The translations under genes were made by a program, and so were the position numbers. This document shows, piece by piece, positions 23,608-25,439 of a stretch of 64,000 nucleotides of DNA (the first letter of the stretch is position 1; the number at the start of each line of letters is the position of its first letter). The stretch comes from a virus. Lineage: Duplodnaviria > Heunggongvirae > Uroviricota > Caudoviricetes. The stretch is from positions 3,162-67,161 of the IMG/VR virus record IMGVR_UViG_3300014205_000184. One strand, given 5' to 3'. The notes beneath the pieces were generated by a model. It had not been told where the DNA came from. It saw only the letters and a list, made by a program, of their open reading frames with translations, and searched no databases.

Positions 23608-25439
23608 TGGCTAAAACACAAGAGGATTTAGATAAAAGTAGAAAAGTTAGAGATGAAGTTATCCGTAAATTTGGGGAAGTCCCAACATCTATTTGGAATG
23701 TTGATTATCATTGGGGTAAGTCAACAATGGAGTTAGATTCTAGGAAGCAACAAGTGGTTGCTGTTGAGAAACATAAGAAGATGGATTATAATATTAAGAG
23801 TTTCAAGAATTCAAAAGGTGAGATTGTAGAGCATAATGAAATGCTCGATGCCTTCTCTATGAGTTCACAAAATGTTAGAGGAAAAGGGAGCGGGTTATCG
23901 ACATTCCCCCCTGATTTATGTAGAAAGATAGTCACTTTTTATAGTGAGGAAGGTGATACTATATTGGACCCATGTTGTGTTGGTGGGGAAACTTTAATAT
24001 CAACAGTATCGGGTGATTTCCCAATAAAAGATTTAGTAAATAAAACACCCTATGTTTTTTGTTTTGACGGAGATAAAATAAGAATTAGAAAAGCCCTAAG
24101 AATATGGAAAACGTATAAAAATACCAAAGTAATAAAAGTTATATTGGATAGTTATGCTATAATTTATGCAACCCCAGAGCATATGTTTATGTTGCGTGAT
24201 GGTACATATAAAATGGCTAAAGAATTAAAATTAAATGATAGTTTAATGCCGTTTTATAGAAGAAAAGATAGTAATGAAGATAGATGGTGCTTAAGTTTAA
24301 ATAATCAAAAATCAATAAAGCAAAGTCATTATGTTTATGAAGAAGTTTTTGGGGAGAAAATAAATACAAAAAAATATTGTATCCATCATAAAGATAATAA
24401 TAGCCTAAATGATTTACCTGAAAATTTAGAAAAATTAAAATATAAAGAACACCAAAAAACATATCAAAGAATTGGCAATAAAAATAATTTTTATGGTAAA
24501 AAACATACAAAAAATACAAAAATTAAGATAGGGTTATCATCTAAAAATAGGAATATTGGGAGAAAACACACAAAATCAGAAATTAAAAAAATGGTTTTAC
24601 ATAAAAAGGACAAATCATACATTAAAAAAGTTGTTGATTTGTTAGAGAAAAATATATATTCACGTAAAGAAATAGCCAAATTTGTTGGAGTAAGTAGATA
24701 TACGGTGTATAATATCGTAAAAAATATGCGCAATTATAATCATAAAGTTAGAGAAGTTATAGATGATAACTTTTATATGGATGTATATAACATTTCTGTA
24801 GATGAGTTTCACAATTATATTGCGAATGGTGTAGTGATTAAAAATTGTGGTCATGCAAGCAGATTAGAAACCGTGCATAAGTTAAATAGGCATTATATTG
24901 GGTACGACATTTGCCACGAATTTTGCCTATTTAATGAAAAAGTTAAAGAAAATTTGTTGAGTAATCAACTTTTCCCATCAAAATATACAATTACTTTGCG
25001 AGAGCAGACGTCTGAGAAAATGGTGGAAGAGAGCAATAGTATTGACCTTGTCATGACATCGCCTCCATATTTTAAAATTGAGCATTACGACGATAACCCG
25101 TTACAATTAGGGTTGAGAGGAACTTATCAAGATTTTTTAGATGCATTGGAAGCAGTTATAGGTGAATGTTATCGTGTATTAAAATCTAATAAATATTGCG
25201 TGTTTAATGTAAACGACTTTAGAATGGATGGAAAATATCACATGTATCATGCCGATACGGCACGTTTAATGGAAAAAGTTGGGTTCAAGCTACATGATAT
25301 TATAATAGTACCATGGCAAAGCTGTATAGGTGCTTGCTTCGGTGGTCAGGTGTGGAGCCGCAAAGTTACGGCGAAAAAACATGAGTTCCTCATTGTAGGT
25401 AAAAAAGTAACAACAACTGATAATAAGGAGACGAAATGA
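23604..25439 (+). CDS. DNA N6-adenine/N4-cytosine methyltransferase precursor interrupted by an intein
   Basis: The exteins carry STFPPDLCRKIVTFYSEEGDTILDPC // CGHASRLETVHKLNRHYIGYDI (the DPPY-family SAM motif I, FxGxG, split by the intein) and DLVMTSPPYF (motif IV). Confidence 0.65.
   Translation: MMAKTQEDLDKSRKVRDEVIRKFGEVPTSIWNVDYHWGKSTMELDSRKQQVVAVEKHKKMDYNIKSFKNSKGEIVEHNEMLDAFSMSSQNVRGKGSGLSTFPPDLCRKIVTFYSEEGDTILDPCCVGGETLISTVSGDFPIKDLVNKTPYVFCFDGDKIRIRKALRIWKTYKNTKVIKVILDSYAIIYATPEHMFMLRDGTYKMAKELKLNDSLMPFYRRKDSNEDRWCLSLNNQKSIKQSHYVYEEVFGEKINTKKYCIHHKDNNSLNDLPENLEKLKYKEHQKTYQRIGNKNNFYGKKHTKNTKIKIGLSSKNRNIGRKHTKSEIKKMVLHKKDKSYIKKVVDLLEKNIYSRKEIAKFVGVSRYTVYNIVKNMRNYNHKVREVIDDNFYMDVYNISVDEFHNYIANGVVIKNCGHASRLETVHKLNRHYIGYDICHEFCLFNEKVKENLLSNQLFPSKYTITLREQTSEKMVEESNSIDLVMTSPPYFKIEHYDDNPLQLGLRGTYQDFLDALEAVIGECYRVLKSNKYCVFNVNDFRMDGKYHMYHADTARLMEKVGFKLHDIIIVPWQSCIGACFGGQVWSRKVTAKKHEFLIVGKKVTTTDNKETK
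23976..24845 (+). mobile_element. Intein (290 aa) carrying an HNH homing endonuclease with NUMOD-type DNA-binding modules
   Basis: N-terminal splicing block CVGGETLISTVSGDFPIKDL. C-terminal block VYNISVDEFHNYIANGVVIKN followed by a +1 Cys. Internal HNH motif YCIHHKDNNSLNDLPENL. NUMOD3-like GKKHTKNTKIKIG and GRKHTKSEIKKM. An HTH VSRYTVYNIVK. Confidence 0.65.

Follow-up and report, generated by a model that had tools for sequence, protein, structure and literature searches.

The window analyzed here, a stretch of 64,000 nucleotides (positions 3,162 to 67,161 of the IMG/VR virus record IMGVR_UViG_3300014205_000184), carries a gene for a phage DNA methyltransferase of the N6_N4 type whose reading frame holds an insert of 290 codons. 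Judged from its sequence, this insert is very probably a class-1 intein with an I-HmuI-like homing endonuclease of the HNH type, which has invaded motif I of the methyltransferase. An initial annotation, made from the letters alone, had taken the insert for an intein, and the analysis agrees: the Pfam and TIGRFAM thresholds for splicing domains are exceeded, a HINT fold is modelled, and homologs of the methyltransferase are without the insert.

The interrupted methyltransferase gene

The listed open reading frame (ORF; 23604..25439, plus strand) encodes 611 aa and is TTG-initiated. Its second codon is an ATG (23607), which gives a protein of 610 aa. GAGGAGG lies ahead of the ATG, the ATG itself shares bases with the stop codon of the preceding ORF, homologous methyltransferases open with MAKT or MGKT in the alignment, and three independent Logan contigs (50-200 kb) carry an identical 610-aa protein (P0122). 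Because of the Shine-Dalgarno sequence and the stop codon overlap, the N-termini of the homologs and the identical protein in public assemblies, the ATG at 23607 is the likelier start codon, rather than the TTG at 23604. The predicted precursor (23607..25439, plus strand) is then a methyltransferase with intein of 610 aa and 71.4 kDa.

The insert comprises residues 125-414 of the 611-aa translation, that is nt 23976-24845 or 290 aa, and these boundaries, read from the junctions and from the gap in the homologs, are exactly those of the initial annotation. The junctions are TILDPC/CVGGETLIST on the left and GVVIKN/CGHASRLE on the right (here and below a slash marks the point of splicing). The N-extein (23607..23975, plus strand; 123 aa) ends in ...GDTILDPC, which the homologs and the LDPF of the solved enzymes 2zie and 8s9n identify as the left half of motif I, the motif binding S-adenosylmethionine (SAM). 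The C-extein (24846..25439, plus strand) has 197 aa followed by the stop codon; its +1 Cys (24846-24848) opens CGHASR, the right half of the motif, and motif IV, SPPY, lies inside it (25059-25070, plus strand). The joined, intein-less site of the window gene reads GATACTATATTGGACCCATGT/TGTGGTCATGCAAGCAGATTAGAA. The computed masses are 37.0 kDa for the spliced methyltransferase, which agrees with the ~37 kDa expected earlier, and 34.4 kDa for the free intein (23976..24845, plus strand; Cys1 ... Lys-Asn), which replaces the earlier figure of ~33 kDa.

The frame of the insert is free of stops across 290 codons in DNA of 25% G+C, for which the expectation by chance is ~1e-14; the remaining five frames contain 12-47 stops each. 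The insert has a GC of 0.25 and a GC at third codon positions (GC3) of 0.18, and the flanking exteins have a GC of 0.36 and a GC3 of 0.32. The difference in GC3 suggests a foreign origin of the intein, beyond what amino-acid composition alone would give.

The joined exteins (320 aa) retrieve 163 intein-less homologs at E<1e-5. All are annotated PF01555, nearly all are 290-330 aa long, and the identity reaches 73% over 97% of the length. When the precursor is aligned with 15 intein-less homologs the core shows a single large gap, which corresponds to the 290-aa segment and is placed between ...LDPC and [C/A/H/M]GH(N/A/S)SR. The insertion is in frame, at a conserved site, and missing from the homologous alleles. 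This comparison had been set beforehand as a check of the insertion point, which it confirms, and the 163 homologs without the segment rule out the contrary case, in which homologous methyltransferases would carry it as an integral, non-excised domain. The window extein keeps 37 of the 37 invariant columns of the alignment, TSPPY among them, which implies that the methyltransferase would work after excision. For annotation, the 610-aa 'methylase' would thus be made up of an enzyme of 320 aa and a selfish element.

On Pfam N6_N4_Mtase PF01555 the spliced extein reaches 83.4 bits (cut-off 26.7), and the match is permuted: residues 24-151 correspond to profile positions 73-216 and the SPPY region to profile positions 1-84. 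As the two stretches come in swapped order, motif I precedes motif IV, and the enzyme is circularly permuted relative to the PF01555 model and to the solved beta-class enzymes. Motif I (DPCCGHAS) is found ~65 residues ahead of motif IV (SPPY), and a conserved region of 120 aa precedes both.

The best solved relatives are 2zie (a putative modification methylase) and 8s9n (an N4-cytosine methyltransferase). The window sequence 'stfppdlcrkivtfyseegdtildpccghasrle' aligns with 2zie and with '...LDPFAGSGTTL' of 8s9n, and LDPC-CGHASR is aligned to the LDPF-AG(S/T)GTT of solved beta-class N4/N6 methyltransferases. By this alignment the site of the intein is within motif I, in the SAM-binding loop, between the F-equivalent and the x of DPFxGSGTT (the third and fourth residues of the motif). 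In the precursor 290 aa split motif I, and only the predicted splicing would make it continuous (DPCCGHAS). The initial annotation had proposed just this interruption and restoration; besides the solved enzymes, two homologs (P0002 and P0003) agree with it, as they natively read DPC-CGHASRLE, the predicted spliced product of the window gene. Its assignment to the DPPY type has to be corrected, the catalytic motif IV being SPPY. SPPY is commoner among N4-cytosine methyltransferases, and the motif makes the predicted target base lean towards N4-C.

Splicing domain and embedded endonuclease

The isolated insert scores 62.5 bits on Pfam Intein_splicing (cut-off 35.8), 33.1 bits on TIGR01445 for the N-terminal splicing region (cut-off 24.5), 24.7 bits on TIGR01443 for the C-terminal splicing region (cut-off 15.6), and 96-110 bits on the intein portion of NCBIfam NF052663, a model of intein-containing RtcB. 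A profile of 13 family members matches DnaB mini-inteins among the PDB sequences at E 1e-18; phmmer of the single intein against PDB sequences gives marginal matches only. The structure of the insert, modelled from a 13-sequence alignment, has a HINT fold. A single-sequence AlphaFold model, with a predicted local distance difference test (pLDDT) of 39, was unusable.

The N-terminal HINT lobe (23976..24290, plus strand; pLDDT >90) contains block A (CVGGETLIS) and block B (ATPEH). The nucleophile is Cys125, which is Cys1 of the intein in CVGGETLIS, and it is invariant among the 13 aligned inteins, as are Thr66 and His69 of the TxxH motif in block B. Block A had been recognised at the start of the insert before, and the TIGR01445 score supports this. 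The C-terminal lobe (24738..24845, plus strand), to which TIGR01443 matches, contains the NHKV motif, block F (DVYNISVDEFHNYIANG) and block G (VVIKN). N255 and H256 (the NH of NHKV), D269, Y271 and N290 are invariant in the alignment and all present in the window. Blocks F and G together read DVYNISVDEFHNYIANGVVIKN/C, with the terminal Asn290 followed by the +1 Cys. The earlier reading of this end was right about the +1 Cys; the 'HN' which it quoted belongs to block F, and the true end is Lys-Asn.

Between the HINT lobes we find YCIHHKDNNSLNDLPENLEKLKYKEH, then basic GKKHT/GRKHT repeats and then a helix-turn-helix (HTH). The HNH (His-Me finger) nuclease module, with ...YCIHHKDNNSLNDLPENLEKLKYKEHQKTY, occupies 24312..24470; the NUMOD3-like basic linker repeats (GKKHTKNTKIKIG / IGRKHTKSEIKK) occupy 24474..24575; and the HTH DNA-binding module occupies 24612..24728, all on the plus strand. 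HTH_7 is just above its cut-off on the window alone (24.6 vs 23.8). The linker repeats are weak in the window, and NUMOD3 is clear in the same-site relatives P0123, P0124 and P0146 (40-44 bits). Other relatives exceed the HNH_3 gathering score (P0197 with 42.1, P0204 with 33.2 and P0255 with 29.0 bits), and PHROGs assign an HNH endonuclease to the intein (phrog_59, 2.9e-9).

The 13-member profile also matches I-HmuI (1u3e) at E 1e-3, and the modelled structure, compared with 1u3e, shows the beta-beta-alpha-metal fold and, within it, the general-base His, the structural Asn and the metal-ligand His/Asn. The pLDDT is ~90 over the HNH region and low over the NUMOD3-like linker. His137, His138, Asn150 and His159 hardly vary within the family, and the window has each of them. 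The insert is thus modelled as carrying an I-HmuI-like HNH endonuclease and an HTH. The HNH, NUMOD3-like and HTH segments named in the initial annotation are present, and the relatives and the structure comparison back the HNH. I-HmuI is a nicking enzyme, and nicking of a strand rather than a double-strand cut would therefore be a reasonable expectation for the endonuclease of the window.

Relatives, homing and rival explanations

A word-indexed protein search with the intein alone gave one match (P0121), and the family came to light only with HMMER. When 1.84 billion representatives were searched exhaustively with HMMER, 3882 matches had E<1e-3 and 1473 of them E<1e-10; many of the matched proteins hold several inteins. 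From the top 150 matches 86 complete units (C... to ...N/[C/S/T]) were extracted. The hosts of the family include ribonucleotide reductase, RtcB, GTP cyclohydrolase I, terminase-like proteins and others. HNH inteins have been called rare in cultured actinophages; among metagenomic phages their family is very large. No further intein of this family came up when all six frames of the window were scanned over its full length with the intein profile.

Homologous inteins occupy this very site (DP[F/M/C]/C ... N/CGH) in at least five other full-length methyltransferase representatives, P0123, P0124, P0128, P0138 and P0153, and a fragment, P0146, also carries a same-site intein. These inteins are 44-56% identical to that of the window and the exteins 34-61%, and the two do not track each other: P0128 has an extein of 61% and an intein of 44% identity, and P0124 has an extein of 34.5% and again an intein of 44%. 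With six sequences, which are few, the pattern is consistent with that expected from transfer of the intein among alleles. The intein of P0138 (231 aa) has lost the NUMOD region and P0153 has a mini-intein of 158 aa without HNH; they look like the expected stages of decay. An IMG/VR scan gave 68 related intein loci, and in the two inspected no same-site methyltransferase relative was identified.

Some of these methyltransferases hold more than one intein. P0123 (1373 aa) has three in one 320-aa enzyme: one in motif I (DPM/C...KN/CGH) of the HNH type, one directly before motif IV (...CYT/C...GN/SPPYW), and a third (GA/C...HN/CFASQ) of the LAGLIDADG type. P0128 (1027 aa) has the motif I intein and another directly after SPPYW. 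The methyltransferase family is an unusual intein hotspot with at least 4 insertion sites, and one small family thus hosts inteins at several catalytic motifs. If true, the multi-intein hotspot would be a natural system for the study of multi-intein maturation.

Another relative is found in a terminase-like protein (L073 90..2198; IMG/VR 3300035698_024415) with the junctions HDDYC/FIGGTKIL...VHN/CDSG. Its HNH motif (YIIHHKDGDSSNNNIENLECMSRSIHQSMH) can be read only out of the intein frame, in an inner ORF (1571..2095), and the in-frame middle part resembles nonsense sequence. Either the assembly carries a frameshift, or the endonuclease lies out of frame, as in examples recently reported from actinophages.

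The explanation that we favour, an intein with an HNH homing endonuclease, hypothesizes that the 71-kDa precursor is made as one chain. Cys1 would perform the N-S acyl shift, followed by trans-thioesterification to the +1 Cys. Asn290 would then cyclise, probably aided by the His of block F; this help is proposed because the penultimate residue is Lys, and a His is present in block F of the window intein, within EFHNY. The products would be an intein of 34 kDa and a methyltransferase of 37 kDa in which DPCCGHAS is intact. During co-infection the HNH/NUMOD3/HTH module would recognise intein-less alleles and cut or nick them, and repair would copy the intein into the cut allele. For the window gene we infer splicing, endonuclease activity and the cleavage site from sequence. 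The element offers a natural HNH-type intein in a defined extein context (DPC/CGH) with identified intein-less target alleles, and both splicing and homing are directly testable.

Several observations weigh against a homing element in full working order. Pfam HNH_3 gives 21.6 bits on the window alone vs a gathering score of 24.8, and NUMOD3 gives 13 bits vs 20.4. The family pattern is HH...N...H...H, with the last His in 174 of 191 motifs, and at this position the window has Tyr163. The window intein is also ~24 aa, one NUMOD3 repeat, shorter than those of P0123, P0124 and P0128. The closest intein-less allele, P0001 (L001-L004), has 73% protein identity, agrees in 70 of 90 nt around the site, and has an Ala at +1; a near-isogenic pair of empty and occupied alleles, which would document recent homing, was sought and none was found, the best being 73% identical. 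Tyr163 and the missing ~24 aa suggest that the endonuclease may be weakened or dead. Taken together with the low HNH_3 and NUMOD3 scores and the decay of P0138 and P0153 within the same-site lineage, they speak for a sub-case of the favoured explanation, in which the intein is competent in splicing, its homing endonuclease is already inactive, and it is inherited only vertically on its way to a mini-intein. We consider this sub-case a real possibility but the less likely one, for the general-base His138, Asn150, His159 and the HTH are all kept, the reading frame has no interruption, and the model is confident over the HNH region. It also counts against an inactive endonuclease that I-HmuI works with only an Asp/His...Asn...Asn set.

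It is very unlikely that the insert is a degenerate intein which no longer splices, and which either leaves the methyltransferase dead or is tolerated as a permanent domain. The features that could be taken for degeneration are the penultimate Lys in place of His and the Asn in place of Asp at position 4 of block F. In the family the penultimate residue is H in 106, K in 11, S in 5 and N in 1 of 123 members, and position 4 of block F is D in 83 and N in 27 of 112. As the Lys and Asn variants recur among family members they appear family-typical and are not read as signs of decay; P0123 has the same KN/C ending at the same site. Penultimate Gly, Lys and Ser have been reported in mycobacteriophage inteins, and an intein with a non-His penultimate residue spliced efficiently, the block-F His being able to substitute (Kelley et al., PMC5050341). 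Moreover Cys1, Thr66, His69, Asn290 and the +1 Cys are intact, the extein retains every invariant residue, and a permanent domain is implausible, since SAM would presumably be unable to bind with the FxGxG loop interrupted at its centre. Still far less probable is a group I/II intron, or a free-standing HNH gene which is in frame by chance as a counterpart of 'ShiLan'. An HNH insertion that is not an intein has been described in an actinophage methylase (PMC11855218), and the terminase relative L073 has its HNH in another frame. The HNH of the window, however, is in frame between two HINT lobes with full splicing motifs, and the five other frames are full of stops. An intron of group I/II was rejected, as an Rfam scan of 23400-25600 finds no intron model and the HINT lobes are in frame.

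The intein could also be thought of as a post-translational switch, in which the rate of splicing, possibly redox-sensitive, would time the onset of phage DNA methylation. This rests on the need of SAM binding for a re-joined motif I loop, on the three cysteines at the splice junction (Cys-1, Cys1 and Cys+1) and on the non-canonical Lys-Asn end; we regard it as very unlikely.

Known systems and the genomic surroundings

Catalogues of inteins in N6_N4 and C5 methylases of phages go back to 2016 (PMC5050341, PMC9957025, bioRxiv 10.1101/2025.01.02.630785). Kelley et al. (2016) described 11 inteins in phage N6_N4 methylases of two mycobacteriophage families, DNMT-1 and DNMT-2 (PMC5050341), and an actinophage methylase family with a LAGLIDADG intein and two other insertions has been presented (Gosselin et al., 2023, PMC9957025). 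The statement in the initial annotation that such inteins are uncommon has to be toned down in view of these catalogues, and its identification of an HNH intein in a phage methyltransferase stands. The window intein resembles those of actinophage N6_N4 methylases in its PF01555 host, its phage setting, its conserved functional sites, and its patchy occurrence among alleles, which suggests homing. It differs in having HNH/NUMOD3/HTH instead of LAGLIDADG, and its host belongs to a circularly permuted subfamily of AT-rich metagenomic phages.

In-frame HNH inteins were, as cited in PMC5050341 and bioRxiv 10.1101/2025.01.02.630785, first noted by Dalgaard et al. in 1997. The window intein shares with them the order of HINT N-lobe, in-frame HNH endonuclease and HINT C-lobe. 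A survey of 784 actinophage inteins published in 2025 found HNH inteins to be rare and located in DNA polymerase, minor capsid, terminase and thymidylate synthase, not in methylases (bioRxiv 10.1101/2025.01.02.630785). Unlike these, the window intein has a methyltransferase as host and belongs to a large metagenomic family, the 1473 representatives at E<1e-10.

I-HmuI itself is free-standing and encoded by a group I intron of Bacillus phage SPO1, unlike the window endonuclease, with which it shares 16% sequence identity. Its metal and catalytic set is D-H...N...N, and that of the intein family is H-H...N...H(...H). The latter set resembles colicin-type HNH. The closest curated model to the intein part is NF052663 'RtcB_rel_intein2' (example P0121; model positions 75-314), which has the same LMPFYR...HHKD...NL...H layout and differs in its extein, RtcB, and in its site, DIG/C. 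ShiLan likewise has an HNH-encoding mobile insertion within a phage DNA methylase gene, in its case without a splicing domain and with the HNH in another frame (PMC11855218). The element of the window brings together two features already known, in a host subfamily and at a site that are both new, the insertion sites of the actinophage inteins lying outside this comparison, and it leaves the current understanding of inteins unchanged.

Nearly all predicted genes of the 64-kb window (34% G+C) are on the plus strand, the exceptions being two minus-strand ORFs towards the 3' end (61940-63932). A blastn search against 50,697 deposited phages gave no DNA match for the methyltransferase gene or for the phage (or phage-like) genome, which is known from metagenomic data alone. 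Immediately downstream of the methyltransferase there is a gene for an integrase-like tyrosine recombinase (25647-26624), overlapped by one for a RuvB-like AAA+ ATPase (26596-27573). The P0001 contigs share the neighbourhood of methyltransferase, integrase and RuvB, and also have RtcB. In these related contigs the integrase/RuvB pair is found at 13290-15172 (L001) and 8974-10856 (L003), and ~4 kb of extra genes (2-hydroxyacid dehydrogenase, radical SAM, cREC_REC) lie between the methyltransferase and the pair.

A group of genes further downstream encodes a nucleotidyltransferase (34415-35386), RtcB (36498-37805; 388 bits, no intein), a tRNA nucleotidyltransferase (38534-39547) and an RNA ligase (44917-45789). 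This RNA-repair-type cluster suggests a tRNA-repair counter-defence module; a tRNA scan of the window found no tRNA genes. Upstream of the methyltransferase a weakly matching JAB-like protein (19475-20509; Prok-JAB 19.8 bits, under the cut-off) stands beside a ThiF-family E1-like protein (20520-21182; 59.6 bits), and they could be a phage pair for ubiquitin-like conjugation or deconjugation. The window also contains a gene for a SNF2 helicase and one for a free-standing HNH endonuclease (55481-56308; phrog_8446) with several CxxC pairs; a link between the latter and the HNH of the intein was rejected, as they have no sequence similarity. A fusion protein of 1030 aa (50890-53982) combines a DnaG-type zinc finger, a Toprim primase and an MCM-like P-loop helicase, and is ~30% identical to primase/helicases of Microbacterium and Arthrobacter phages despite the AT-rich window.

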